64,000 nt of DNA from Narcine bancroftii (GCF_036971445.1 NC_091480.1:23870001-23934000), one strand, 5' to 3'. Numbered from the stretch's first letter, positions 15,765 through 61,262 are shown. Notes: a model not told the origin generated them from the letters alone. Numbers and translations: made by a program.

Positions 15765-15880
15765 AACACAAACATCCAGATTCGAGGGCAAAGTCTATCC
15801 TGTTGAAATCAGATTCTTAAATGGATCTTTCACTGGCAAGGATGATGCTCTTGCCCTGTTATTTCATTTAAAAAACTACA
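15765..15880 (+). mobile_element. Rex1/Babar LINE end of ORF; its 3' UTR hosts the minisatellite and resumes at about 19790-19930
   Basis: Translates to TSRFEGKVYPVEIRFLNG (compare RxRFxxSFYPxxIRLLN). A tail-like GATAGCATTCAGAACAAA...CATTGTATCTCG...GTGTCAAT follows the array. Confidence 0.5.
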
Positions 15881-16093
15881 CTTTTCTCTATAACCTGCAC
15901 TAGGTCTTTGCACTTTTCTCTATATCCTGCACTAAGTGTTTGCACTTTTCTCTATACCCTGCACTAGGTCTTTGCACTTTTCTCTATACCCTGCACTAGG
16001 TCTTTGCACTTTTCTCTATACCCTGCACTAGATCTTTGCACTTTTCTCTATACCCTGCACTAGGTCTTTGCACTTTTCTCTATACCCTGCATT
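15879..16093. repeat. 32-bp minisatellite, left part (about 7 units)
   Basis: Unit CACTTTTCTCTATACCCTGCACTAGGTCTTTG with period 32 (15911, 15943, ...). Confidence 0.97.
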
Positions 16094-19000
16094 AGGAACA
16101 TAGGAACATAGGAAGTAGGAACAGAAGTAGGCCAAAAAAGGCCCATCAAGCCTGCTCCGCCATTCAATACGATCATGGCTGATCTAATTTATGACCTAAC
16201 TCCACCTACCTGCCTTGTCCCCATATCCCCTAATTCCTCTATCATGTAAAAGTTTATCTAAATGAATTTTAAATATGTTTAATGAGGCAGCCTCAACCAC
16301 GTCCCTGGTTAGAGAATTCCAAACATTCACTACTCTCTGGGAAAAACTATTTTTTCTCATCTCTGTCCTAAATCTACTCCCCCGAATCTTGAGACTGTGT
16401 CCTCTCATTTTAGTTTCCCCGGCCAGCTCTAAAAACCTTCCTACATCTATCCTATCCATACCCTTCATAATCCTATATGTTTCTATAAGATCTCCTCTCA
16501 TTTTTCTGAACTCGAGCAAATACAATCCCAGATGATTTAATCTTTCATCATAAGTCAACCCCTTCATCCCAGGGATCAACCTTGCAAACCTTCTCTGACC
16601 GTCTCCAAAGCCAGTATATCCTTCCTCAAATATGGAGACCAGAACTGGACATAGTACTCCAGGTGCGGTCTCACCGTACCTTATACAGTTGCAACATGAC
16701 CTCCCTACTCCTGAATTCAATTCCTCTAGCGATGAAGGCCAACATTCCATTTGCCTTCTTAATAACCTGCTGCACCTGCAACCCAACTTTTTGCGATTCA
16801 TGCACAAGCACTCCCAAGTCCCTCTGCACAACACCATGCTGTAGTGTTTCACCCTTTAAATAATATTCAGCTCTTTTATTTTTCTTGCCAAAGTGGATAA
16901 CCTCACACTAACATTGTACTCCATCTGCCAGACCTTTGCCCACTCATCCAGCTTAACTATATTCCTCTGCAGACTCTCCACATCCTCATTACAATTTGCT
17001 CTTCCACTCAATTTGGTGTCATCCGCAAACTTGGATACACCACATTTTGTCCCCTCCTCCAAGTCATCAATGTAAATGATGAACAGTTGTGGGCCTAGCA
17101 CTGACCCCTGCGGCACTCCACTTACCACTCTCTGCCAACCTGAAAAACTCCCATTTATCCCGACTCTCTGCCTCCTGTCAGACAACCAATTTTCAATCCA
17201 GGCCAATATACTTCCCCGGACTCCACTTTCCTCTAACTTACTGATAAGTCTCTTGTGCGGCACCTTATCAAACGCTTTCTGGAAATCCAAATATACAACA
17301 TCAACCTGTTCCCCTCTATCCACCGCACCCATTATATCCTCAAATAATCCTAACAAGTTTGTCAAACAAGATCTTCCCTTTCTAAAACCATGCTGCGTCT
17401 GCCTGATTGAACCCTTACGTTCCAAAAGTTTCACTATTTCATCTTTAATGACCTTTAATGACGGCTTCAAGCATTTTTCCAACTACAGACGTCAAGCTAA
17501 TTGGCCGATAATTTCCAGTCTTCTGCCTACATCCCTTCTTAAAAAGTGGCGTGACATTTGCTGTCTTCCATTCTGCCGGGACCTGCCCAGAATCCAAGGA
17601 ATTTTGGTATATGACCACCAATGCATCAACTATAACTTCTGCCATTTCCTTCAGAACCCTTGGATGCATATCATCAGGACCAGGTGATTTGTCTGGCTTT
17701 AGTCCCATTAGTTTCTCCATCACTACTTCCTTTGTAACAACTATTTTATCAAGGCCCTCCCAAACATTCGCATCCTTAACTCCGCACTTGGGCATGCTGG
17801 ACGTGTCTTCCACCGTGAAGACTGACACAAAATATTTGTTTAATGCCTCGGCCATTTCCTCATTTTTTGCTACCAGTTTTCCTTTCTCATCCTCCAAGGG
17901 TCCTATGTTAACTCTGGCCACCCTCTTCCGTTTTATATATTTATAAAATTTTTTGCTTTCTGTTTTTATATTTTGTGCCAATTTACTTTCATAATCCTTT
18001 TTCCCATTTCTTATTACCCACTTTGTAACCCCTTGTTGTCTCTTAAAGTTTTCCCAATCTTCCAGTTTCCCACTGCTCTTTGCAGCTTTGTACACCTGCG
18101 CCTTCAATTTTATACTCTCCTTTATTTTCTTTGTTAACCACGGTTGATTTTTCCCTCTCTTGCTGCCCTTTTTCCTGACCGGAATATATTTTTGTTGAGC
18201 ATTACAAAATATTTCTTTGAAAATCTTCCACTGTTCCTCAACTGTTTCATCAATTAGCCTGTGCTCCCAGTCCAATCTGCCCAATTCCTCCCTCATCCTA
18301 TGGTAGTCACCCCTGTTTAAGCATAATATATTAGTTTTAGATCTAACTATTTCCCCTTCCATCTGAATGAGAAATTCAATCATACTATGATCGCTATTTC
18401 CCAGATGGTCTCTGTCTATTACATCATTTACTCTACCTATCTCATTGCACAACACTAGATCCAGGAGAGCATTTTCTCTTGTGGGTTCCTTAACATGTTG
18501 CTCAAGAAAGCTATCGTGGATGCATTCTATGAAGTCCTCTTCTAGACTCCCACGACCAACTTGATTTTCCCAGTCTATATGGAAGTTAAAGTCCCCCATG
18601 ACTACTGCTGTATCATTATTACATGCCTTACTTATCTCTCTATTTATTTCCTGTGCCTCTAAACTATTGTTATTTGGTGGGCGATAGATAACACCCACCA
18701 ATAATTTTTTCCCTTTGTTATTCTTTATCTCCACCCAAATGGACTCAACATTATGTTCTTTAGATCTTATATCATTCCTCACTACTGCCTGGAGCTCATC
18801 TTTGATTAAGAGTGCAACTCCACCTCCCTTACCATCCTGTCTATCTCTTTGCACCACCTGATACCCTTGAAAGTTTAATTCCCATTTAGGGTCACCTTGT
18901 AGCCATGTTTCCGCGATGGCTACCCAATCATTGGCATCGGTACTGATTTGCGCCTCAAGTTCACTAATCTTACTTCTAATACTGCGGGCATTCAGATAAA

Positions 19001-19097
19001 GTGCCCTTATGCTCTTTGTCTTTTTAATATCTAGTGACTTCTGTAACCTTTTCTTTTGATTTTTCTGCCCACTATTTTTCTTTGTAATTTTCTTATC
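16094..19097 (-). mobile_element. CR1 LINE, 5'-truncated, near-complete ORF2 (APE endonuclease + RT)
   Basis: LYLNARSI, ETWL, GVIYRPP, MGDFN, SDH, NYRPISLTS, YLDFQKAFDKVPH, GVPQGSVLGP and FADDTKL, with a (TTCCTATG)n tail. Frameshifts from a 10-bp duplication CTTTAATGAC (17443-17462) and a small deletion near 16905. Confidence 0.95.
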
Positions 19098-19795
19098 TAG
19101 GTCTTTGTACTTTTCTCTATACCCTGCACTAGGTTTTTGTACTTTTCTCTATACCCTGCACAAGGTCTTTGCACTTTTCTCTATACCCTGCAATAGGTCT
19201 TTGCACTTTTCTCTATATCCTGCACTAGGTGTTTGCACTTTTCTCTATATCCTGCACTAGGTGTTTGCACTTTTCTCTATATCCTGCACTAGGTGTTTGC
19301 ACTTTTCTCTATATCCTGCACTAGGTCTTTGCACTTTTCTCTATACCCTGCACTAGGTCTTTGCATTTTTCTCTATATGCTGCACTAGGTCTTTGCACTT
19401 TTCTCTATATCCTGCACTAGGTCTTTGCACTTTTCTCTATATCCTGCACTAGATCTTTGCACTTTTCTCTATATCCTGCACTAGATCTTTGCACTTTTCT
19501 CTATATCCTGCACTAGATCTTTGCACTTTTCTCTATATGCATTAGGTCATTTCACTTTTCTCTATATCCTGCACTAGGTGTTTGCACTTTTCTCTAAATC
19601 CTGCACTAGGTGTTTGCACTTTTCTCTATATCCTGCACTAGGTGTTTGCACTTTTCTCTATATCCTGCACTAGGTCTTTGCATTTTTCTCTATATCCTGC
19701 ACTAGGTCTTTGCACTTTTCTCTATATCCTGCACTAGGTGTTTGCACTTTTCTCTATATCCTGCACTAGGTCTTTGTACTTTTCTCCTGCACTAT
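19098..19795. repeat. 32-bp minisatellite, right part (about 22 units)
   Basis: Same unit as 15879-16093, with variant blocks (GGTGTTTG, GATCTTTG). Confidence 0.97.
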
Positions 19796-20884
19796 TAGAC
19801 TTGCTGTGACACTTCTCCCTGCACTGGTTATTCATTCATTTATTTGCACTACATCCTGTACATGTTGACTTGGCTTGATAGCATTCAGAACAAATCTCAT
19901 TGTATCTCGTTATAAGTGTCAATTCAATCATTTCTGTTTCTCATGCCAAATTCCCAATCCAGCTTCACTTAGAACTCTTACTAACAAAATGAAGTGTAAT
20001 GTGACATCTTAACAAATAGATGTTAAAGGTCTGTTCACAAAATCTACCCTGCCTTCCTCTTCTATCCTTACTGTTCTAAAAATAATACTCATCTGCTCTG
20101 CAGGTCAGACAGCACCCATTAGCATTGGAGTTCAATGACCCTTCTATTAAAAATTGATGATTGCAAGTCCACCTTCCTGCCAAGGGACTTCACCATTTCT
20201 GTGATCTCATTAAAAAACTCAATCGTCAGTCAGAAACAATAATCTTTTCCAATTCCATGCTTCTTTCAATTATTAATCTGCATTTTCAAGTACCTATTAA
20301 TTTTGTCCAAGATCAATGTATCTTGAGAGTTTCTGCTTGCACAGTTGTTATACTGTCTGGTCTAGAGATACTGAATTAATTCCCTTCTTCTTTAATTATG
20401 TGGGAAGGGTAACATTTCCAATCCCCCATTTTATTTTGCCACGATTCCTTCATCCAGGGAGAAATCTTAGCTGATAAAGGCATTTAAAAGCATTTTCAAA
20501 ACAATCACAACTTGTTAGCTGGCATTATGAAAGTAAGATGAAGTTCTCCATTCACAAATGGTCACAAAAGTTTGTCAGTGATATTTTGGGTGTGCTATTT
20601 TCTCACTGAGTTACTTAGGTGCTTTGTCCATACTGGACAAGAAGGCTTGAGTCAGTAAGACCTGTCCATACATCTAGATGAGGCAAGTATGAGCAAGGAG
20701 AGTTAATGGGAGGCAATTCTCTTCAGAAGGTTCTGTTAAAAATCAATTTCCTACACCCTCTAAACAATGCAAAGGACTGCATTTAGGATGTGAATGTTAT
20801 TGCAAATCCAATCTGCAAAGAACTTGATATATCACCAATAATAACATTAAAAATAGGTTGAAAGTAAGAGTAGAAGGAGTTAAA

Positions 20885-21480
20885 AGATTAACTTCTCATA
20901 GAGGATAACGAGTCATTTGAATGAATCGTCAAAGGAAGTGGTAAAGGCAGGTACAGTACATGTAAATGTTTGAAGGACATTTAGATAGGAGATATATAGA
21001 TAGGAAAGTTTTTAGAACAGTGGCTCTCAACCTTTTTCTTTCCACTCGCATACCACTTTAAGTATTCCCTATGCCATAGCTGCTCTGTGGTTAGTCAGGG
21101 ATTGCTTAAGGTGGTATGTGGGTGGAAAGAAAAAGTTTGAAAACTACTGTTTTAATCGTACCTAACTGACTCGTTATGTGCACGGTTTCTTAACTCCAAA
21201 GGAAATGAGCCAATGAGAATTTTTCTCAAGCAAAATATTTCAGTAACAATTGGGTCTAGAGCAGTGATTCTCAACCTTCCCTTCCCAATCAAATACCACT
21301 TTAAACAATCCCTTACTTAACGATGGTGTAGGGATCACTTAAAGTGGTATGTGAGTGGAAATAAAAAGGTTGAGAACCACAGTTTTAGAGGGATATGGGT
21401 GAAATATAGGCAAATAGGATGTTGAGATAGACAAAGTGGGTCCGATTATGTGCTATAAACATCTATTAGTATGATTCTAA
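20885..21480 (+). mobile_element. Old CR1 3' fragment interrupted by a hAT MITE
   Basis: GAAGTGGTAAAGGCAGGTACA...ACATTTAGATAGG before the MITE, GAGGGATATGGG...GGCAAATAGG after it. Confidence 0.6.
21018..21382. mobile_element. Non-autonomous hAT (Charlie-like) composite MITE
   Basis: TIR CAGTGG.TCTCAACC / GGTTGAGAACCACAG. 8-bp TSD TTTTAGAA / TTTTAGAG. Two inverted ~125-bp sub-units around a spacer. Confidence 0.88.
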
Positions 21481-33943: not shown

Positions 33944-35055
33944 AAAGACTTCAACAATGAAGACGCTGTTTACATCCGGTACCGCACGGATGGCAGTCTC
34001 TTCAATCTGAGGCGCCTGCAAGCTCACACCAAGACACAAGAGAAACTTGTCCGTGAACTACTCTTTGCAGACGATGCCGCTTTAGTTGCCCATTCAGAGC
34101 CAGCTCTTCAGCGCTTGACGTCCTGTTTTGAGGAAACTGCCAAAATGTTTGGCCTGGAAGTCAGCCTGAAGAAAACTGAGGTCCTCCATCAGCCAGCTCC
34201 CCACCATGACTACCAGCCCCCCACATCTCCATCGGGCACACAAAACTCAAAACGGTCAACCAGTTTACCTATCTCGGCTGCACCATTTCATCAGATGCAA
34301 GGATCGACAACGAGATAGACAACAGACTCGCCAAGGCAAATAGCGCCTTTGGAAGACTACACAAAAGAGTCTGGAAAAACAACCAACTGAAAAACCTCAC
34401 AAAGATAAGCGTATACAGAGCCGTTGTCATACCCACACTCCTGTTCGGCTCCGAATCATGGGTCCTCTACCGGCATCACCTACGGCTCCTAGAACGCTTC
34501 CACCAGTGTTGTCTCCGCTCCATCCTCAACATTCATTGGAGCGCTTTCATCCCTAACGTCAAAGTACTTGAGATGGCAGAAGTCGACAGCATCGAGTCCA
34601 CGCTGCTGAAGATCCAGCTGCGCTGGGTGGGTCACGTCTCCAGAATGGAGGACCATCGCTTCCCAAGATCATGTTATATGGCGAGCTCTCCACTGGCCAC
34701 TGTGACAGAGGTGCACCAAAGAAAAGGTACAAGGACTGCCTAAAGAAATCTCTTGGTGGCTGCCACATTGACCACCGCCAGTGGGCTGATATCGCCTCAA
34801 ACCGTGCATCTTGGCGCCTCACAGTTTGGCGGGCAGCAACCTCCTTTGAAGAAGACCGCAGAGCCCACCTCACTGGCAAAAGGCAAAGGAGGAAAAACCC
34901 AACACCCAACCCCAACTAACCAATTTTCCCCTGCAACCGCTGCAACCGTGTCTCCCTGTCCCGCATCAGACTTGTCAGCCACAAACGAGCCTGCAGCTGA
35001 CGTGGACAATTTACCCCCTCCATAAACCTTCGTCCGCGAAGCCAAGCCAAAGAGA
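33944..35055 (+). mobile_element. RTE LINE, 5'-truncated
   Basis: RT C-terminal half (LFADDAAL), nearly identical to 39481-40890, with frameshifts and a complete 3' tail. Confidence 0.95.
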
Positions 35056-38000
35056 GAATGAGAACATACCATTGTAGATGGCTGAATATCATTGTTTACA
35101 TGCTGCTATGACTTAAGACAATCTACACTCACATGAAAGAGTAGAAGTGCACCAAATAATGACTTGGTATCAGTCTATATGGTAATTTAGATTCAAGAAG
35201 TGGGTTTAAAATAATTTTTGAAGAGCAAACAATAGAAACTCAACATTTAAACTTGGAATTGAACATCTTGGTGCAACAAACAATATGTGCCCTTCCCCCT
35301 CTGTTCCCGGAAATCCCAGAGGTAGAGGGTATGATCCCTGCTCTGAGACATCATTATCTCAGCCCATGTCCTCTGCTCTTTGGGCCAGAGAGAGACCATC
35401 CACCAACGCAGTGGGAGGTGCAGGGTAGCCTCATGGGTAAAAAGTGCAAGTGCCCCCATTTTCCTGCTCAGCACTTCACTGAAAATTAGTCATTCGATTA
35501 AAGATGACAAATCATGCAAATCCTCACTGAGGTCCTAATGAGGTCATTAAACCATTTGTGGCACTGAACCCATGAATGAGTATCAGTCACAGGTTCTTGG
35601 TGTTAGCTGCAGGTTTCTACCTCCTGTCAACAAGTAATGTGATCTCACTGTGTGGCTTTATCACATCCAGGGAGAAATGGAGGGGCAGCCTTGATGCAAT
35701 GCCCTCCTTTGCAAGAACTCATTTTAGATGAAATTTGCAGAATGTCTTTCAAAATCCTGAGTTTGAAACAAGTCGCAAAGTCAGAAAGTTTGAAAACTGT
35801 GGGACTGGGCTCATTGAGTGGTTGGTGCCACAGTTGGAAGAGAGCTGCTGAAGAACAGAGAGAAGGAATGAAGCCCAGTTGAATAAGACTATATATAACC
35901 TGGATGCTCGGGGAGTGACCACAAGTACATGCTACTTGGTGGAACAATGTGCACTAAATTCTCAGGCAGTGGTCCAAAACGAGCTGTGCACAAGGAACAT
36001 TTGGTGCACTTGGCATGGAAACTGCATTACAAAGGTAAGTGTGGTGTGTGGCCAGAGCGGCACACTTGAATTTCTAGCAAAACTGGACCTGGAAATTTCT
36101 TGAAAAACATCATTATTGTCAGCCATAGAGTGTTGAAAGGAACAGCTCCCTGGCTCCAAATTCCCCACCTCATCGATTTGATTTGAAAAATATATTGCTG
36201 AGAAGTATATGGTTAGGGATCAACTTCACATTCCTTGCATATAGATTTTCAGGCAAGAATCATACAGCACCTCAATCATATAAAGTCCCTTCATTACTGG
36301 TCTGAAATCCAATTTTTGCAGCACTGTGACTTTTTTTATTTCACACATCAAACCACCATCATGTTACATACCATCCATGTATTGGTGAATCAGAACTCAG
36401 TTTATGTCTTGGTTTTATGCCTGCTCAGAACTCATTTATACTGCTCCAACATATTCTTTGCAGGAGTCCCAAATCACCCCGTGGATTTCACTTCAGTTGA
36501 CAAAGCTTTGAAGCTCCGACCCAATTGAATAGGCTGTCCATTAGCTGTCCTCTTCAGTTTTAAGTAGATCATCAATTTGAAAAAGTACGATATCCATCCA
36601 ACTGGCATTGTTATTCATTATTTATGACTTTTGCCTACTATTTATCAGTGTTAAGCAGTCAACTGTCTCAGATGAGAAAAAAAAGTCTTCATAACAAATT
36701 TGGCCAGCTCTTATTTTACACGAGGTCAAATATCTCCTGAATGCATAAATTATTGACATGTCACTTTAATTGTTTCGAGTTTAACTATTCCATTTCAAAA
36801 CCAAAGCCTGTAAATCCCCATTTGCCCTGAATTTTAAAGAGCAGTTCAGTCATGTTCAGAAGTTCTGACACAATGTTATCTGTTTCTTATCTTCTACGGT
36901 TAATTTGCACTTGTCAAAACATAAAATTTTCTTCCCAGGAAACATTATCTCAATCCAATTCAGTTGGTAATCCTGAGACCAAATGCTTTTGTCAAAACAA
37001 CACGAGTTTTGCATTCTGGTGAAATGTGCAAGATCCAATTTGTTCAGGGTGTTTTGTACCTTTTCAAAATAAGGTAAAATGAATCCCACCTTGTTTTATG
37101 CGTTTACCATTATGCTAAACATAGCAATGAGGAAGTAGCAGTGAAAGTGAAATTGGAGTTAAATCAGAGACAATTTTTCTAAAAAGTTGCTTTTGAGTTT
37201 CAGGATTTCCTCCAAGTATCCGATGTTTTGACACCTTGCAACTTCACTTATATTCTTTAACATTAAGCTGACCATTCCATCCTGATTTGCTTTTATTATA
37301 CACGGCATTATTTTGAAGGCGGTACTTATATTCTGAAAAAGAAATCTTAATGCTACGAACTTTACAAATCAAGATGCATGATGCCAGTTTTAAGATCAAG
37401 CTAGTTTTAACATTTTTCCAGATTTTTTAAATTTTACATTTTCTAACTCAAGACTTACAACATTGGAATGGATTGAGCTCTGATGTGGGTCATTCGAGAC
37501 CTGCCACCCAGAGACATCTGATATTGTCCATCCGCGAGCTGTGCCTGACAAGCTGTAGTATGGAAGTACAGAATATATTCAAGGTCAAGGTCAAGTACTT
37601 GATCATCCAACCTCTTGCTCTACTGTTGGATTTATCGACGAGAACATTGATTGGACTGGGCTAAAAGGCCTAACATAATTTACATAATGGCTCCTCAGCT
37701 CAACATCATCCATGCACAATGTACATTCTCATTCATTGACAAAAGTTTGGGTTAAGTTTATTAAATGTTTCCCTAATTTCCAACTTCATTTCTTTAATTT
37801 ATATTATCATTATAAATGCTCAAGCCTTTTTTCCATTTGTATTTGTTAACTATTCAAGTTAATTTAAGCTGCTTGTAAATATCTGATTTCAGACAGATTC
37901 AAAATCAAAGTGCTTTATTTAATAAACTATATATACATATTTATACACATACAGGTTACACACTAATTTATTTTCTCCAAAACAACCACTGACTTTCACT

Positions 38001-39488: not shown

Positions 39489-40889
39489 TTCTTTGGCTTG
39501 GCTTCGCGGACGAAGATTTATGGAGGGGGTAAAAAGTCCACGTCAGCTGCAGGCTCGTTTGTGGCTGACCAGTCCGATGCGGGACAGGCAGACACGATTG
39601 CAGCGGTTGCAAGGGAAAATTGGTTGGTTGGGGTTGGGTGTTGGGTTTTTCCTCCTTTGCCTTTTGTCAGTGAGGTGGGCTCTGCGGTCTTCTTCAAAGG
39701 AGGCTGCTGCCCGCCAAACTGTGAGGCGCCAAGATGCACGGTTTGAGGCGTTATCAGCCCACTGGCGGTGGTCAATGTGGCAGGCACCAAGAGATTTCTT
39801 TAGGCAGTCCTTGTACCTTTTCTTTGGTGCACCTCTGTCACGGTGGCCAGTGGAGAGCTCGCCATATAATACGATCTTGGGAAGGCGATGGTCCTCCATT
39901 CTGGAGACGTGACCCATCCAGCGCAGCTGGATCTTCAGCAGCGTGGACTCGATGCTGTCGACCTCTGCCATCTCGAGTACCTCGACGTTAGGGGTGTGAG
40001 CGCTCCAATGGATGTTGAGGATGGAGCGGAGACAACGCTGGTGGAAGCGTTCTAGGAGCCGTAGGTGGTGCCGGTAGAGGACCCATGATTCGGAGCCGAA
40101 CAGGAGTGTGGGTATGACAACGGCTCTGTATACGCTTATCTTTGTGAGGTTTTTCAGTTGGTTGTTTTTCCAGACTCTTTTGTGTAGTCTTCCAAAGGCG
40201 CTATTTGCCTTGGCGAGTCTGTTGTCTATCTCATTGTCGATCCTTGCATCTGATGAAATGGTGCAGCCGAGATAGGTAAACTGGTTGACCGTTTTGAGTT
40301 TTGTGTGCCCGATGGAGATGTGGGGGGGCTGGTAGTCATGGTGGGGAGCTGGCTGATGGAGGACCTCAGTTTTCTTCAGGCTGACTTCCAGGCCAAACAT
40401 TTTGGCAGTTTCCGCAAAGCAGGACGTCAAGCGCTGAAGAGCTGGCTCTGAATGGGCAACTAAAGCGGCATCATCTGCAAAGAGTAGTTCACGGACAAGT
40501 TTCTCTTGTGTCTTGGTGTGAGCTTGCAGGCGCCTCAGATTGAAGAGACTGCCATCCGTGCGGTACCGGATGTAAACAGCGTCTTCATTGTTGGGGTCTT
40601 TCATGGCTTGGTTCAGCATCATGCTGAAGAAGATTGAAAAGAGGGTTGGTGCGAGAACACAGCCTTGCTTCACGCCATTGTTAATGGAGAAGGGTTCAGA
40701 GAGCTCATTGCTGTATCTGACCCGACCTTGTTGGTTTTCGTGCAGTTGGATAATCATGTTGAGGAACTTTGGGGGACATCCGATGCGCTCTAGTATTTGC
40801 CAAAGCCCTTTCCTGCTCACGGTGTCGAAGGCTTTGGTGAGGTCAACAAAGGTGATGTAGAGTCCTTTGTTTTGTTCTCTGCACTTTTC

Positions 40890-47594: not shown

Positions 47595-47843
47595 TTGCTC
47601 AAAGTATCATTGTAGAGTTGGTGATTCGAACTGCTTGTATTCGTTTGCAGTCAGGTACAAGTATTTCCAGATTGCATTCCATTCGTGTGCAGTATTACAT
47701 AATTTTCTTTCTGTGAGAGACATGCGTGGTGTGGCCAGAGCCCTTTCTGATAGTTACAATGGCAAGTGTTAAGTAGGAAGGAAGCAATTCCAGTTCAGTA
47801 AATATTTAAAATGAGGTTAAGTAAGCTTACCATGTATCTAGGA

Positions 47844-48219
47844 CAGCAGTTATCAACCTTTTTCTTTCCACTCACGTACCTCTTTAAGTAATCCCTATGC
47901 CACAAGTGCTCTGTGTTGAGTAAGGGATTGCTTAAGGTGGCATGTGGGTGGAAAGAAAAAATTTGAAAACCACTGTTTTAATTGTACCTAATTGACTCAT
48001 ATGGCCATGTTTTCATAACGCCAAAGGAAATGGCCCAATAACAATTTTTCTCCAGGCAAAATATTTCAGTAACATTTGGGTCTAGAGCAGTGATTCTCAG
48101 CCTTCCCTTCCCACTCACATATCACCTTAAGCAATCCCTTATTAATCACAGAGCCCCGATGGCAAAGGGATTACTTAAAGTGGTATGTCAGTGGGGAAAA
48201 AAAAGGTTGAGAACCACTG
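47844..48219. mobile_element. Composite hAT MITE, copy 2
   Basis: Colinear with 21018-21382, including the spacer. Confidence 0.88.
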
Positions 48220-49396: not shown

Positions 49397-49726
49397 ACCA
49401 CTTTAAGCATTCCCTATGCCACAGGTGCTCAGCGATGGAGTAAGGGATTAGTAAGGTGGAAAGAAAAAGTTTGAAAACCACTGTTTTAATTGTACCTAAT
49501 TGACTCGTTATGTACACACTTTCAGAATTCTAAAGGAAATGGGCCAATGACAATTCTTCTCAAGTGAAATATTTCAGTAACAATTGGGTCTAGAGCAGTG
49601 ATTCTCAGCCTTCCCTTTCCACCCACATACCACCTTAAGCAATCCCTTACTAATCACAGAGCATCGATGGCCTAGGGCTGACTTAAAGTGGCACGTGAGT
49701 GAAAAGAAAAAGATTTAGAACCACTG
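49397..49726. mobile_element. Composite hAT MITE, copy 3 (left end in the gap)
   Basis: Colinear with 21018-21382. Ends AGAACCACTG. Confidence 0.85.
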
Positions 49727-51044: not shown

Positions 51045-52369
51045 TTTCTCTTTGGCTTGGCTTCGCGGACGAAGATTTATGGAGGGGGTAAAAAGTCCAC
51101 GTCAGCTGCAGGCTCGTTTGTGGCTGACAAGTCCGATGCGGGACAGGCAGACACGGTTGCAGCGGTTGCAGGGAAAAATTGGTTGGTTGGGGTTGGGTGT
51201 TGGGTTTTTCCTCCTTTGCCTTTTGTCAGTGAGGTGGGCTCTGCGGTCTTCTTCAAAGGAGGTTGCTGCCCGCCAAACTGTGAGGCACCAAGATGCACGG
51301 TTTGAGGCGTTATCAGCCCACTGGCGGTGGTCAATGTGGCAGGCACCAAGAGATTTCTTTACACAAGAGAAACTTGTCCGTGAACTACTCTTTGCAGACG
51401 ATGCCGCTTTAGTTGCCCATTCAGAGCCAGCTCTTCAGCGCTTGACGTCCTGCTTTGCGGAAACTGCCAAAATGTTTGGCCTGGAAGTCAGCCTGAAGAA
51501 AACTGAGGTCCTCCATCAGCCAGCTCCCCACCATGACTACCAGCCCCCCCACATCTCCATCGGGCACACAAAACTCAAAACGGTCAACCAGTTTACCTAT
51601 CTCGGCTGCACCATTTCATCAGATGCAAGGATCGACAATGAGATAGACAACAGACTCGCCAAGGCAAATAGCGCCTTTGGAAGACTACACAAAAGAGTCT
51701 GGAAAAACAACCAACTAAAAAACCTCACAAAGATAAGCGTATACAGAGCCGTTGTCATACCCACACTCCTGTTCGGCTCTGAATCATGGGTCCTCTACCG
51801 GCACCACCTACGGCTCCTAGAACGCTTCCACCAGCGTTGTCTCCGCTCCATCCTCAACATCCATTGGAGCGCTTTCATCCCTAACGTCGAAGTACTCAAG
51901 ATGGCAGAGGTCGACAGCATCGAGTCCACGCTGCTGAAGATCCAGCTGCGCTGGATGGGTCACGTCTCCAGAATGGAGGACCATCGCCTTCCCAAGATCG
52001 TGTTAGATGGCGAGCTCTCCACTGGCCACCGTGACAGAGGTGCACCAAAGAAAAGGTACAAGGACTGCCTAAAGAAATCTCTTGGTGCCTGCCACATTGA
52101 CCACCGCCAGTGGGCTGATAACGCCTCAAACCGTGCATCTTGGCGCCTCACAGTTTGGCGGGCAGCAACCTCCTTTGAAGAAGACCGCAGAGCCAACCTC
52201 ACTGACAAAAGGCAAAGGAGGAAAAACCCAACACCCAACCCCAACCAACCAATTTTCCCCTGCAACCGCTGCAACCGTGTCTGCCTGTCCCGCATCGGAC
52301 TTGTCAGCCACAAACGAGCCTGCAGCTGACGTGGACTTTTTACCCCCTCCATAAATCTTCGTCCACGAA
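51045..52369. mobile_element. RTE insertion with two outward-facing 3' ends (- arm 51045-51360, + arm 51361-52369)
   Basis: The left arm is the reverse complement of the RTE 3' ~315 nt; the right arm is RT through the 3' end. TTTCAATT flanks both sides (51037-51044, 52370-52377). Confidence 0.92.
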
Positions 52370-55329: not shown

Positions 55330-56545
55330 TTGCCCTTACCTACCACCCCACCAGGCTTTACATCCAACATATTATCCCCCCATAATTTGGTCACCTACAA
55401 AATGATTCTCTGTACTCACCTCTCCACCTTCCACATGTCGACTCTCATGTTGACTCATCCCTTCCCACTAATTGCCCCTGCAGTAGCTACCCTTGTGACC
55501 GCAGGAAGTGCCTCTCTTGCACCCACATCTCTGCCCTCACCACCATTCAGGGCCCCAGTCTTTCCAAGTAAAGCAACACTTCACTTGTGAATCTGCAGGA
55601 GACATCTCCTGCATCTGATGCTAATGTTGTGGTCTTTTCGACATCAGAGAGACTGGACGTCTACTGGGAGATGGCTTTGTTTTGAGCATCTTTGCTCTGT
55701 CCGCAGCAATGATGGTGGACGCCTACTGGGAGATCGCTTTGTTTTGAGCATCTTCGCTCTGTCCGCAGCAATGATGGTGGACGCCTACTGGGAGATCGCT
55801 TTGTTTTGAGCATCTTCGCTCTGTCCGCAGCAATGACGGTGGACGCCTACTGGGAGATCGCTTTGTTTTGAGCATCTTCGCTCTGTCCGCAGCAATGATG
55901 GTGGACGCCTACTGGGAGATCGCTTTGTTTTGAGCATCTTCGCTCTGTCCGCAGCAATGATGGTGGACGCCTACTGGGAGATCGCTTTGTTTTGAGCATC
56001 TTCGCTCTGTCCGCAGCAATGATGGTGGACGTCTACTGGGAGATCGCTTTGTTTTGAGCATCTTTGCTCTGTCCGCAGCAATGATGGGGATCTTTTGTGG
56101 CCGCCCCTTTTGATTCTGTGCCCCACTCCTACACCAACATGTCTGTCCAAGGCCTTGTGCACTGCCATGCCAAGGCCACCTGCAAATTGGACGAGCACCT
56201 GATATTCCATCTAGATACTCGACAACCGGATGGCATTAACATTGAATTTTGTTTCTATTAGGCCACTCCCCAGTCTTTCCCTCTTTCTCCTCTCTTTTAA
56301 CTCTCCACCCCCTTCCCTCTCCATTCAGAATTATTACTTCTCAGATTTCTTTCTTTTGTGTCCTCCCTTCTCCATCCACCTATGACATGTTTCCTGTGGA
56401 CCTGTGCTCCTCTCCCTGCCCCTCTCTCCACCATTTTATTTGCTTTTTGCTCGAGGGTCAGGACCAAAATGTTGATTTGGATGCTTTATCTTTGCAATAT
56501 AAAAAACACTGCATGACCTGTTGAGTTTCTCCAGCATTTTTTGCA
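55330..56545 (+). mobile_element. Penelope-like element 3' part with internal tandem expansion
   Basis: C..RKCLSC.H, HFTCES, ETGRLLGDRF.EHL.SVR, KLDEHLIFHLDTRQPDGINIEF, and terminal GACCTGTTGAGTTTCTCCAGCA. Confidence 0.85.
55655..56088. repeat. 62-bp minisatellite, 7 near-identical units
   Basis: Unit GGACGCCTACTGGGAGATCGCTTTGTTTTGAGCATCTTCGCTCTGTCCGCAGCAATGATGGT. Confidence 0.97.
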
Positions 56546-57169: not shown

Positions 57170-58362
57170 TGAAGGTTATATGGACAGACATATACCATAG
57201 AAACAAGCTGTTCTGCCCAATTTGTTCATGCTGACCAAGTTTCCGACATGAACTAGCCCCATTTGCCTGCAAATGTCTTTCCCAAGTTATAATTACATCC
57301 GCCTCTAACACATACTTTACCAGCTGGTACCATATACCCAGCACTCTCTGTGGAAAAGGTTCCCTCTCAGGCCCCCTTTTAATCATTCCCCGGCTCATTG
57401 TGAACCTATGCCCTCTAGTTTTAGACTCCCTACTTTGGGAAAACTCACCATTCACCTTTCTACACTGCTCAGTATTTTCTGAATTTCTGTAAGCTGCCTT
57501 TTAGCTTCCTACACATCAGGAAAAAAACTCTGCCTATCCAATCCTTCCTCACAATCCAAGCCTTCTAGTTCAGGAACATTCTTGCTAATCATTTTAATCT
57601 TTTACAGCTTCATGACATCTTTCTCGTAGCTGGGAGTACTGTGTACAGTGCTGGTCACCAAGTACAATCTCACCAATGTCTTATACAGTTGTATCAAATC
57701 TTGCCAACTGATGTACTTAATGACCAGACCAATGAAGGCAAGTGTGGCAAATGCCTTTTGCAACACCATGCCTGTGTTGTCACCATCAGGGATCGATGTG
57801 CCTGGTCTCTTTGCTCTGCAACAATTTCCATGTCCTGCCATTTACTGTGGAAGCCCTGATCTGGTTTAACTTATTAAAATACAATTTACACTTGTCCTAG
57901 TTAAATTCCACCCCCCTTTCCTTGACTCACTTCCCAAGTTGATCCAGATCCGGTTATTGAACATTACAGCACAGTACAAACCCTTTGGGCCACAGTTTTG
58001 TGCTGACGTGTACAAACCTTCCCAACAAGCTACATCTTCCCCACCTCACATTCATAACTCTCTATCGTTCTTCCATGTATGTGCCTGTCTAAGACTCTTT
58101 CAAATGCCCTGATAGTACCAGCCTCCACCAACACCCCGGCAATCCATTCCAGACACCCACTACTCTGTGTAAAAAAAACTTATCCCTGATGTTTCCCCTA
58201 AACTTCCCATCCTCACCTTGAATGTATGTCCTCTGGCATTTGTTAATCTCACACTGGGGAAAAAAGTGTTGACTGTTCACCCTATCTATGGGTCTCATAA
58301 TCTTGTAGACCTCCATTAAATCACCTCTCATCCTACGAAGAGAAATGCCTAGCTCTGTTAAT
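57170..58362 (-). mobile_element. Two adjacent CR1 3' fragments (57170-57955, 57960-58362)
   Basis: KTRGHRF...FPQRVLGIW, QLYKTLVR and MRGDLMEVYKIMR.IDRV...FFLHRVVGVWNGLP. Confidence 0.85.
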
Positions 58363-58528
58363 TGTTATGCTTGTTCTTTCAAGAAACACTAAACCAACTT
58401 TATTTTCCTTGAGCTGCTTCAACCGACTTCTAGCAACAACACCTATCATATGTCTCTTCCGGTTTCCACCCAACCACACACATTGCATGCTGGAAAATAT
58501 AGTTCTTATTTACACACATAATAACACA
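58363..58528 (-). repeat. 3' LTR (about 165 bp) preceded by a polypurine tract
   Basis: TG(TG)TTAT...ATAACA termini, PPT at 58529-58539, AATAAA at 58399-58404 (-), ZNF143-like ACTATATTTTCCAGCATGC and ETS-like CCGGAAG. Confidence 0.8.
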
Positions 58529-58611
58529 TCTTTCCCCTTAAAATAAATAAAAAAAACACAATACTATGTCTACATAGCAAAAGTATCTCCATTCCAGGGT
58601 TGGTCTCTTTC

Positions 58612-59340
58612 CATCAGATGACTTCTGGCTTCACAAATTCATTCAAGTTTGTTCAGGGCATCTGCAAGATTCAGCTGAAGTTCAGAAATCCATAAAGAGG
58701 TGTTTTGTTTGCTCTTCCTTTACCTGTTTCTCAGCAAGTTCATGAAGAGTCACCAGTTGATTTTGCTGCTTCAGTTCTTCAACATTACGATAGGTCACCA
58801 GATGCTGAGAAATAATTTCAGAGGAGCTGCTTATGTCAGCAGAACTAATGTAATCTTCACGTAAAATATGATTTCCTCGCATATCTTCTCGTTCCCTCAA
58901 AAGTACCCTGCTGTTAAGGCGCTTGCATTTCGCATCTCTGATTCTCCCTGTTGAGTAATAAAGCATGCTTATTTGCTTCATTAGAGCATTTCTGTAAATG
59001 GTGAATTTCCTTCATGGCACCTTCTAATTTAGCTGAGAGATTTCCCACAGATTTTTGCATTCGTTCATATTCTTCACACTGGCACTTCAGAAGCAAAGCT
59101 TTCATCTCCACTTCATTCACAATTTCATCCAAATAGTTTTCTCTCTCTTATTTTCCTGTTTTGCCAATAGCAATTGATCTTGAGCTTCAACATATCCATT
59201 AGACAACTCTGTGAGCTTCACAATCTTGGTCACAGTTGTTGCAATGGGAGACATAGGTGCCACTCCCGCTTCTGATAGTGTGGTGGCTCCTTTAAGCTTT
59301 GTAGTTGAAAGAAAATTGTTTTTTTATTTTCTAATTTCTC
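58612..59340 (-). pseudogene. TPR: Processed TPR (nuclear basket protein) fragment, about human residues 350-605
   Basis: LS.TK.KGA..LSE....[99 protein letters not shown]. No introns; frameshifts and a stop. Confidence 0.92.
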
Positions 59341-59751
59341 ACCATGAAGACACTCTTCAAGTTGTTTTCTTCAGAGTTCAGATCCTTGTATTGATAAATT
59401 CTTATCCTCTAATGCAGCCATTCTTTCTTTTAGATGCAGCTGAAGTCACTCATCAGAGTCTCTAAATGTCGCAAATATTCTTCTGCACTGCCAGGCCGTT
59501 CTTCAGCCTTTGTCAGAGCTACAATTCACTAGGCAAGTTCAGCGTCTACTTCTGGTAATGTTTCTGCTCGCTTCATCGTTTGCTGAAGTTCCAGATGTTC
59601 CTGTAACTCTATTTTTGTCTTCTGGCTGGCGTAAGAAGGCATCCTTATTTTCCAACTCATTTTCCAGTTTGTCATTCATGTCATGTAATGAGGTTGATTC
59701 TCTCTGTACATTAAGGTATCTCTTCTCCAGTGTAGTCAACCTTCCTCCCAT
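59341..59751 (-). pseudogene. PPFIA2: Processed liprin-alpha (PPFIA2/4-like) coiled-coil fragment; paralogue uncertain
   Basis: [82 protein letters not shown]. No introns; internal deletions. Confidence 0.9.
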
Positions 59752-60897
59752 GAGTGTTGTGTGCTTATCTTCAGTCTGTGAAGCCACTATGAAAACTCTT
59801 TTCACCAGGCCGAGCTCTTCACATGCACACAGACTTAATATTGGCTGAACTCTCCTTTCTACAATCAGCAGCTGTGGCTTTAGATGCTGTCCTTTGTGCT
59901 TGAAGGTCATCATACAGCCTCCTTTTACTGGAACTTTCTCTCCAGTCTAGCCTGTCACTTTTAATCTCACAGGATAAATCTTGTTCTTTATAGTGAGGGT
60001 CTTGTAATCATCCATAATAACAGATTCACTTGGGCTCCAGTGCTCATCTTCAGTGGAATTACTTATTCATTCAGCCACTGGACGATCCATTCCATTTTTA
60101 CCGCAGCAGTCTGTAGTGAATCCATTTTTTTGTCCACTGTGTGCACCTTTCTCTTCATATCCCCTGTTTTGCAGCACTTTGCAAAATGATTCTTCTTTCC
60201 ACATTTATAGCAGGACTTTCCTTAGGTAGGCACATCTTTGGAATATGTCCACCTCTGCACCTACTGCATTTGTTGTCTGAGCTTACTACTTTGCTTTGTT
60301 GTTGTTTTGGGAAACTCCTGGTGCCCTGCTTAACTGTTTTCATTGCATGCACTGTTGTGTCTATCCTGTGCAGCTCCTTCGCTTGTTCTCATGTGGTCTC
60401 TGCTGCCCTACACATATTCACAGCCTTTTCCAGAGTAAAATCTTTTACACACAACAGTCTTTCTCTAAATCTATTATCTGGGATTCTGCAAACTCTTCTG
60501 TCTTTAATGAATGAATTTTTGAAATCTCCAAATTCACAGGAATTACTCAGTGTGTGAAGCTCGGTTAAGTATTGTTCAAACCTCACATCTGGATTCTGGT
60601 CACAAGAGAAAAACTTGAATCTCTCAAATGTGATGTTTTCACTTGGAGCAAAATACTCCTCAAATTTTGTCATCAGAGTGTGCATTGTTAAAGCTGTCTC
60701 ATCAATTGAAAACTGTTATAGATGTCCAAGGCATCTTTACCTATCACATGTAGAAACATAGACACTTTCCGTTTTCCATCAGTCTCTCCCATTCCACCAG
60801 CCTCTAACTAAATGTTGAATCGCTGTTTGAAACATTTCCAGTTGTCAGCTAGATTGTCGATAAACTGCATCGGTGTGGGAGGACTCAACTTATCCAG
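59752..60897 (-). pseudogene. Gypsy gag + aspartic protease, decayed
   Basis: (L/M)DKLSPP..NLADNWK.FKQRF, KFEEYFAP..NITFERFKFF...Q, LKDR.VC.I.D...RERLL...FTLEKAV..CRAAE, two zinc knuckles (CSRC...H...C; KNHFAKCC), a degraded DTGAQVN and QPILSL.AC..LGLVKRV. Confidence 0.88.
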
Positions 60898-60940
60898 GCT
60901 TACAAACTATTATCTTCTCTTACTCTCTCAGACACTATGT

Positions 60941-61262
60941 GAAAAAAAATTACCCCTGACGTCTCCTCTGAACTTTCCTCCCTTCACTTTGTACTGATGT
61001 CCTCAGGTGTTTGCTTCTCTAGTCCAGGGGAAAAGGTGCTGGCTGTCTACCTTATCCATGCCTCATAATTTTGTACACCTCTATTAAGTCATCTCTCATC
61101 CTTCTTTGCTTGCAAAGAGATAATCCCGAGCTCTGCTAACCTTGCCTCATAAGACATATTTTCCAATCCAGGCAATATCCTGGTAAATCTCCTCTGCATC
61201 CTCTCCAAAGGTTCCACATCCTTCCTGTAATGAGGTGAACTGAACTGAACACAATATTCAGA
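60941..61262 (-). mobile_element. CR1 fragment
   Basis: EYCVQFSSPHYRKDVEPLERMQRRFTRILPGLENMSYEARL.ELG. Confidence 0.88.

Follow-up and report, generated by a model that had tools for sequence, protein, structure and literature searches.

The window, that is, the whole stretch of 64,000 nucleotides of Narcine bancroftii DNA that was analysed, carried on its minus strand a degenerate LTR element of the Gypsy type in which spliced pieces of two host genes, PPFIA2 and TPR, stood in the place of RT, RNase H and integrase. Read in the direction of the element, the locus comprised the following features:

60935..61259, minus strand: CR1-like LINE fragment (flank, outside the element), adjoining the element at the expected position of the 5' LTR
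60927..60938, minus strand: remnant of the PBS region, the PBS not being intact; family matches start at 60936
60104..60897, minus strand: Gypsy gag with zinc knuckle, with stops and frameshifts; tblastn match to P0280 residues 1 to ~270
59752..60103, minus strand: degenerate aspartic protease region; P0280 residues 281-367 (Asp_protease_2), 48-62%
59744..59751, minus strand: junction J1, from pol to PPFIA2; 8-nt family microhomology ATGGAAGA, with 2 changes in the window copy
59341..59751, minus strand: coiled coil of PPFIA2 (liprin-alpha-2), spliced from 5 exons and covering P0002 residues 311-490
59335..59340, minus strand: junction J2, from PPFIA2 to TPR; 6-nt family microhomology AAGGAA
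58609..59340, minus strand: coiled coil of TPR, a nuclear basket protein, spliced from 6 exons; approximately residues 352-607 of P0001
58609..58614, minus strand: junction J3, from TPR to the element 3' UTR; 6-nt microhomology GTGGAA
58540..58608, minus strand: 3' untranslated stretch of the element, ~69 bp, common to pol-bearing copies
58529..58539, minus strand: polypurine tract (PPT), at the same position as in two-LTR copies
58363..58528, minus strand: 3' LTR, TG...CA, 166 bp, matching both ends of two-LTR copies
58140..58362, minus strand: CR1-like LINE, the insertion target of the element (flank), from sequence comparison

Gag and protease of the window copy (60897-59749, minus strand) corresponded to P0280 residues 1-394 at 48-71% identity in several frames, and gag gave a weak Retrotrans_gag match in Pfam (E = 0.012). 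Past residue 394 of P0280 nothing aligned, the window copy being without RT, RNase H and integrase. Most of the layout proposed in an earlier sequence-only reading was thereby recovered: Gypsy gag and protease run into liprin-alpha and then TPR coiled coils (matches to P0280, LIP-1 and PF25785), nothing of the remaining pol domains follows, and the announced ~70 bp, PPT and LTR lie after TPR (69 bp, 58539-58529 and 58528-58363, respectively). The PBS-like site of that reading did not hold up, as only a remnant is left at ~60938-60927 and the upstream LINE aligns right through those letters. This LINE is 74% identical to the one on the other side of the element, with an alignment that reaches ~60932; from their translation, we take both pieces to be of the CR1-like class. 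The 3' LTR was the sole LTR of the window copy, which has no 5' LTR, and measured 166 bp vs. ~190 bp in the best-kept copies of the family. A few bases just ahead of J3 were deleted, and many stops and frameshifts were present in the window copy; the best-kept family copies show stops and frameshifts too.

Elsewhere in the window, young LINE copies occurred at 39503-40511, 51361-52369 and 33944-35058 (RT frames of 447-463 aa), the first two forming arms of 1009 nt that are 98% complementary and 10.8 kb apart. Two 32-bp tandem arrays (15768-16208 and 18965-19882), a 62-bp minisatellite (55592-56149) and three copies of a ~375-bp MITE-like element with inverted ends of 65-97 nt (21008-21387, 47834-48203 and 49397-49726) were also observed. 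No host exons were found near the element, and Pfam searches with 37 of the 64 long stop-free frames returned transposon domains only.

Identity and splicing of the cargo

Protein searches gave TPR and PPFIA2 as best matches, as the sequence-only reading had expected (TPR and PPFIA). The liprin piece matched Pfam LIP-1 (E = 5.6e-20) and, at 75-79%, residues 311-488 of the liprin-alpha-2 of N. bancroftii (P0002), which was the top of 3272 protein matches; the PPFIA2 exons of the genome itself translate to an exact stretch of P0002. The TPR piece matched Pfam PF25785 (E = 4.4e-11), and its single match among 195 candidates was the TPR of the whale shark (P0001, residues 358-604); going by human TPR, the captured stretch would presumably include the pore-anchoring region. 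PPFIA and TPR are unrelated multi-exon genes, and the host copies are located on other contigs than the window, at C23:91.398-91.409 Mb (PPFIA2) and C11:85.666-85.672 Mb (TPR). Compared with these host genes, the window cargo consisted of 5 PPFIA2 and 6 TPR exons, in order and at 81-93%, with no intron sequence in either piece. It retained three PPFIA2 and five TPR exon-exon joins; the fourth PPFIA2 join falls inside a deletion, the PPFIA2 piece having a 99-nt deletion common in the family and 109 nt net missing. The cargo is thus intron-less over all 11 exons, as had been claimed, and each piece covers several exons when aligned to its own locus.

Junctions and microhomology

To read the junctions, the host exon was aligned with 14 copies of the cargo type and 9 of the pol type. 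In family copies the words shared by both sides were of 8 nt at J1, 6 nt at J2 and 6 nt at J3, whereas for a random PPFIA2 x TPR joint the chance of at least 6 shared nt is 0.0037 and that of at least 8 nt is 0.0006. The J2 word AAGGAA straddles a PPFIA2 exon-exon join and therefore exists only in spliced RNA; the J3 word GTGGAA is placed directly after the pol stop codon. LTR elements can take up mRNA through template switching in the course of reverse transcription. Pol was replaced, not interrupted, by flush-joined internal coding pieces, and neither poly(A) nor a duplication around the cargo was present at the junctions read. The latter two, or junctions without support, had been named in the sequence-only reading as evidence against itself; the junctions recur. 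A LINE-made processed pseudogene was considered and is refuted by the lack of an mRNA 3' end, poly(A) or TSD around the cargo.

The reading frame is kept at J1 and J2, where gag meets TPR in TPR-only copies, at the L121/L138 junction and across two shared deletions of 99 and 84 nt; composition alone puts words of 6-8 nt common to cargo coding sequences in phase in 61-65% of cases. The TPR-only and golgin-like captures described below leave gag at one common motif.

Copy number and structure of the family

The count by junction that the sequence-only reading had proposed showed that the chimera is not a one-off: a 22-mer over the PPFIA2/TPR junction (up to 2 mismatches) occurred at 105 genome places, with 0 for the reversed control, and the family includes copies with two LTRs and TSDs. 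This 22-mer recovered 32 of 46 fetched junction-bearing copies, from which a rough total of ~150 J2-bearing copies may be estimated, the sample being biased to well-kept ones. The cargo search of the genome yielded 55 matches from the 40 scored of 339 candidates. Whole cargo copies were of ~2.8-3.0 kb, and two direct LTRs with TG...CA ends were found in 26 cargo copies. A 5-bp TSD (4 or 5 of 5 letters) was displayed by 13 of 39 two-LTR copies vs. 30 of 1482 swapped flanks, and by 8 of the 26 cargo copies with two LTRs; the other 26 of the 39 were without a clear TSD. Two cargo copies with identical scores, C1:73220203 and C1:73234609, lie 14 kb apart and probably reflect local duplication rather than transposition.

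The family copies carry the PBS TGGTGTCAGAAGTG after the 5' LTR and a PPT ahead of the 3' LTR in two-LTR copies. Complementarity between the PBS and a tRNA gene (L180), at the 3' end of the latter, extended over 14 nt in most copies and over 18 nt in L106; this tRNA gene was called by Rfam in one of four loci (E = 3e-9) and by ARAGORN in none of the four, and the tRNA was read, from the alignment, as a putative Leu(CAA).

Pol-bearing copies, in which the same LTR-gag-protease frame encloses RT, RNase H and integrase, were common, the pol-type form of J1 being present at 129 genome places. One pol-type copy (L026, 4.35 kb) was covered end to end by P0280, a single-ORF Gag-PR-RT-RH-INT protein of 1301 aa with relatives in fish that go by the name K02A2.6-like; the order of domains was gag-PR-RT-RH-INT, with no env. 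The LTRs, PBS, PPT, TSDs and domain order found in the family are those of a Ty3/Gypsy LTR retrotransposon, the cargo line being a non-autonomous derivative. The pol-bearing relatives are of the same age as the cargo copies, with a median LTR-LTR distance of 0.164 (9 pol-type copies) vs. 0.166 (25 cargo copies). In a tree built from the gag of 60 copies (one further copy was omitted for short coverage), cargo and pol copies were intermingled; the tree was star-like, the end branches having a median of 0.1 and good support being reached by 2 of the 57 inner branches. The similar LTR distances and the mixed star-like tree fit a single old burst driven by pol-bearing copies, which may have acted as helpers of the cargo line. 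Samples for the ratio of cargo to pol disagreed: 5 PPFIA2-cargo to 18 pol copies were obtained with a gag motif (30 loci), and 18 TPR-ending to 7 pol copies with a 3' UTR motif that derives from cargo copies (30 loci). Dispersed copies and pol relatives taken together support the non-autonomous element, captured by template switching and mobilised in trans, of the sequence-only reading.

Some copies departed from these two structures. L099 and L101 derive from the cargo line by deletion and, with two LTRs, measure 0.9 kb, a TRIM-like size, L101 retaining just a few TPR letters at J3. In L047 and L247 pol runs into cargo part-way, these being pol x cargo recombinants or nested insertions.

Single-cargo elements and recombinants

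Elements with only one of the two genes were also present in the genome. TPR-only elements (L071, L074/L130 and L076) leave gag at its end, continue with a longer TPR piece and then return to the 3' UTR; they hold TPR sequence flanking the double-cargo piece on both sides, and their 3' junction is 4 nt from J3, so that no junction is common to them and the double cargo. Queried with TPR sequence past J3, the genome returned 6 exons of the host gene and processed pieces at 3 places (8 of 8 candidates). At L129:4719-5299, processed pieces of TPR lay with their exons in a scrambled order, and no match to the LTR family was nearby. PPFIA2-only elements (L245 and L253) have J1 and continue beyond the position of J2 for ~10 nt of the following exon, after which they return to integrase at AGCAG; this exit junction occurred at 3 genome places, 2 of which had been used to define the pattern. 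Since each kind of single-cargo element holds host sequence absent from the double cargo, neither is derivable from it.

In L138, J1-PPFIA2 was joined to the long TPR piece with the TPR-only 3' junction, which shows that PPFIA2-bearing and TPR-only kinds recombined. The double cargo is thus likely a recombinant of two earlier single captures. The recombination step that would link it to the TPR-only copies is suggested by parsimony rather than proven, as no derived change common to TPR-only and double-cargo copies could be polarised. The 99- and 19-nt deletions occurred in all four combinations of presence and absence (7, 7, 6 and 3 of 23 classifiable copies); this distribution may come from recombination or recurrent deletion and was not counted as proof. 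The sequence-only reading had asked for at least three junctions; all three are present, but their origin in a single event is unlikely given that single-cargo elements exist.

Further cargo in the same family

The family carries pieces of six host genes, namely PPFIA2, TPR, KANK1, CCT6, a vimentin-like and a golgin-like gene. Some copies are PPFIA2-KANK1-TPR, with a KANK1 piece in place of the middle (L235:179-958 in this three-gene variant). Against PDB the piece matched KANK1 (E = 9e-61) better than KANK2 (1e-36), and a search with it yielded 26 matches at 20 dispersed places, along with 6 exons of the host gene on C1 and their duplicate on C259. Host KANK1 exons appeared twice with identical scores (C1:58365966-58387645 and C259:208084-229749), possibly a haplotype duplicate in the assembly.

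In a sister line (L052:1541-3345, L056 and L146-L170) the end of gag is followed by golgin-like, filament and CCT6 pieces. The filament piece is of the type III intermediate filament kind, with vimentin as its top PDB match (E = 8e-13), and the CCT6 piece was recognised at E = 3e-34. This line gave 58 matches from the 40 scored of 111 candidates, and its final 200-300 nt before the 3' junction matched five other places at 83-89%. In golgin-like-only copies (L173-L176), as many as 5 exons of a gene on C5 with a 1425-aa coiled-coil frame were joined by splicing. We presume this gene to be GOLGA4, a name given from sequence only; a look-up of the piece in Atlas gave a best value of only 0.75, and no GRIP domain match for the host gene was obtained on C5. 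A spliced golgin-like piece was also observed at L172:2859-3228, with no element sequence within ~3 kb.

Selection and coding status of the cargo

Changes relative to the host coding sequence were counted in 64 PPFIA2 and 71 TPR copy pieces, at sites with at least 15 copies. Private non-CpG changes comprised 731 nonsynonymous, 214 synonymous and 57 stop changes (omega 1.2), and rare shared non-CpG changes 628, 221 and 44, respectively (omega 1.0), the neutral nonsynonymous to synonymous ratio being 2.78 in both cases. No purifying selection was thus detected among cargo copies (omega ~1.0-1.2). Non-CpG changes at frequencies of 25-80% were 4 nonsynonymous to 3 synonymous; the star-like tree leaves little power for selection on inner branches. 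All 25 of the 25 near-fixed differences between copies and host were synonymous when sites near gaps were omitted, the omitted sites including three TPR codons at which the copies are unlike the host and closer to the whale shark. The most reasonable interpretation of these near-fixed synonymous differences is that the host sequence changed after the capture. At non-CpG sites the copies were at a median of 7.2% from the host (n = 61), and the window copy at 8.0%.

A 19-nt out-of-frame deletion was common to at least 23 copies, and no chimeric PPFIA2 + TPR protein appeared in the best 150 of 467 protein matches. A functional chimeric retrogene was rejected on the basis of the broken frames in the copies examined and an omega close to 1; the cargo is likely a passenger.

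Contigs from sequencing runs

Contigs from runs labelled as organisms B, C and D (three studies) covered 30 of 30 bins of the window stretch. Among the contigs listed, one from X9 spanned J2, one from X10 spanned J1 and at least 2 of 8 from X5 spanned J2, whereas none bridged the entire window copy. The family likely predates the split of the labelled organisms B, C and D. Among those listed, three X11 and two X12 contigs also spanned J2 (one study, RNA status guessed) at depths of 6-18; they were far shallower than host-type TPR contigs, displayed no start or strand and, being weak, could represent read-through or DNA. No RNA source of the window stretch was found among the sequencing runs listed.

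Discussion

In our opinion, and with a probability of about 75%, the window element is a defunct member of a non-autonomous Gypsy family in which spliced PPFIA2 and TPR took the place of RT, RNase H and integrase at short shared words, by template switching, and which spread by means of its pol-bearing relatives. The cargo is spliced and in sense orientation, microhomology was found at every junction read, and dispersed copies have LTRs, PBS, PPT and TSDs. The order of events would be as follows. A pol-type element would have taken up PPFIA2 alone, through J1 and then back into integrase, and a separate element would have taken up a long TPR piece alone; a switch between both element RNAs at AAGGAA could then have produced the double cargo, J3 being made by a further switch or a deletion. 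This product would have been amplified in one short burst and continued recombining, sub-lines losing 99, 84 or 19 nt and one of them gaining KANK1, and all copies examined would have decayed neutrally afterwards. The 5' LTR of the window copy may have been lost in a deletion beside the LINE. With 105 multi-cargo places as compared to 3 and 3 single-cargo ones, passive carriage needs one lucky productive source copy.

The second capture may have been different. TPR could have been taken afresh from cellular mRNA by a PPFIA2-only element, or all three switches could have occurred in one round, the TPR-only elements being independent in either case; we consider this unlikely. A fresh capture would account for the 6-nt word of J3, which is common with pol-type RNA and unlike the 3' junction of TPR-only copies, and TPR mRNA was abundant in one RNA-like run examined. 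It would nevertheless require one family to take the same gene, in overlapping regions, twice. Element RNAs have packaging signals, and by retroviral logic two of them would be expected to share a particle more frequently than one of them with any particular mRNA; L138 is itself a recombination of PPFIA2-bearing with TPR-only RNAs. An origin in one round would moreover leave the PPFIA2-only copies with J1 unexplained. Repeated capture at one place has some basis in the existence of switch hot spots, such as the gag motif common to TPR-only and golgin-like captures and, in the accessible text of PMC5131818, BLASTOPIA.

The success of the multi-cargo lines could also be attributed to what they carry. 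The family would then be a serial shuffler of mRNAs, in which six captured mRNAs were recombined into two- and three-gene chimeras that out-replicated their parents more than 10-fold because the cargo, as an in-frame coiled-coil extension or through an RNA property, was advantageous; this seems improbable to us. For the double cargo in particular, a replication advantage given by an in-frame Gag-protease-liprin-TPR coiled-coil product or by a stop-free RNA is very improbable. It would agree with the greater number of multi-cargo lines with respect to their single-cargo parents, with the presumed inclusion of the pore-anchoring region (going by human TPR) and with J1, J2, the gag/TPR and L121/L138 junctions and the 99- and 84-nt deletions all being in frame. 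However, the phase of shared words is given in 61-65% of cases by composition alone, and the 19-nt deletion of at least 23 copies is out of frame. Nor was purifying selection found among copies; the 25 near-fixed differences from the host, all synonymous, are best read as drift on the host side, and none of the best 150 protein representatives contained both parts. Processed pseudogenes inserted by LINEs into a dead element, an assembly error or a segmental duplication have a negligible probability, as the LINE pieces that flank the window copy and the want of a listed contig bridging all of it are outweighed by internal coding fragments with no poly(A) or end duplications that replace pol rather than interrupt it, by the same junctions on many contigs with differing flanks and TSDs of their own, and by contigs from runs labelled as other organisms that bridge J1 or J2.

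As regards a passive cargo spread by pol-bearing relatives, parents, recombinants and helper coexist in one genome, so that switch order, hot spots and cargo choice become readable. Gene pieces multiplied more than 100-fold with no sign of benefit call for caution in the adaptive reading of in-frame chimeras, and the same caution applies to gene annotation in ray genomes.

Among known systems, the fish K02A2.6-like Gypsy elements (P0275, P0280 and P0283), which we take to be of the Mag clade, have a single ORF of ~1300 aa (Gag-PR-RT-RH-INT) and a tRNA-Leu-type PBS, and their RT is 64-71% identical to that of the ray pol-type copy; unlike the ray cargo family, they are autonomous and carry no host cargo. 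LTR-mediated retroposition via template switching was described by Tan et al. (2016; PMC5131818), whose accessible part presents the Drosophila retrocopy CG4799_CG11924_r (two genes, three switch points, Pao element BATUMI) as well as CG17604_r, a four-gene mouse case, a switch hot spot and secondary retroposition. The sequence-only reading knew of no description of the cargo pair; as a type, such a pair is not new, given that two-gene three-switch (Drosophila) and three-gene (maize Bs1) cases are contained in that part of PMC5131818. As in the Drosophila retrocopies reported there, partial spliced sense mRNA replaced part of an internal ORF in the ray family, with microsimilarity of ~6 nt, two or more parental genes, secondary retroposition and a hot spot. 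The ray cargo has three of the features by which LTR-mediated retrocopies are recognised in the same text, namely partial spliced mRNA, microsimilarity and secondary retroposition. In contrast, the Drosophila retrocopies are young, with 18 sites for nine retrocopies (PMC5131818, accessible part), whereas the ray Gypsy family is old, has at least 105 copies of one chimera and, unlike them as far as that text goes, retains single-cargo intermediates and, in related lines, pieces of six genes.

Maize Bs1 is similar: it, too, is an LTR element that holds exon sequence from several unlinked genes, and its copies have common switch points (accessible parts of PMC5131818 and PMC7264820). It is present in one to five copies per species (PMC5131818, same part) and is discussed as an expressed chimeric gene, whereas the ray family has more than 100 copies, all those examined being broken. 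Among vertebrates, CrocERV29 (KIT-ligand, nine copies) and CrocERV31 (nectin3, six copies) are likewise LTR elements that took up host mRNA, increased in number and occur in more than one species, according to the accessible part of PMC4299795. These are retroviral, with one gene each and cargo ORFs under purifying selection (same part of PMC4299795), in contrast to the ray family, which is Gypsy, multi-gene and devoid of pol in its cargo line, and in which no selection was detected. Transduced ORFs are usually found in one or few copies, as stated in the portion of PMC7264820 at hand. In the literature searched, which excluded subscription journals, Repbase and Dfam, we found no description of a liprin + TPR chimeric retrotransposon or of retrocopies made by elasmobranch Gypsy LTR retrotransposons. 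The supplements of PMC5131818 may list cases of higher copy number. The mechanism is known, and what sets the ray apart is the number of copies, the preserved intermediates and the six cargo genes within one vertebrate family.
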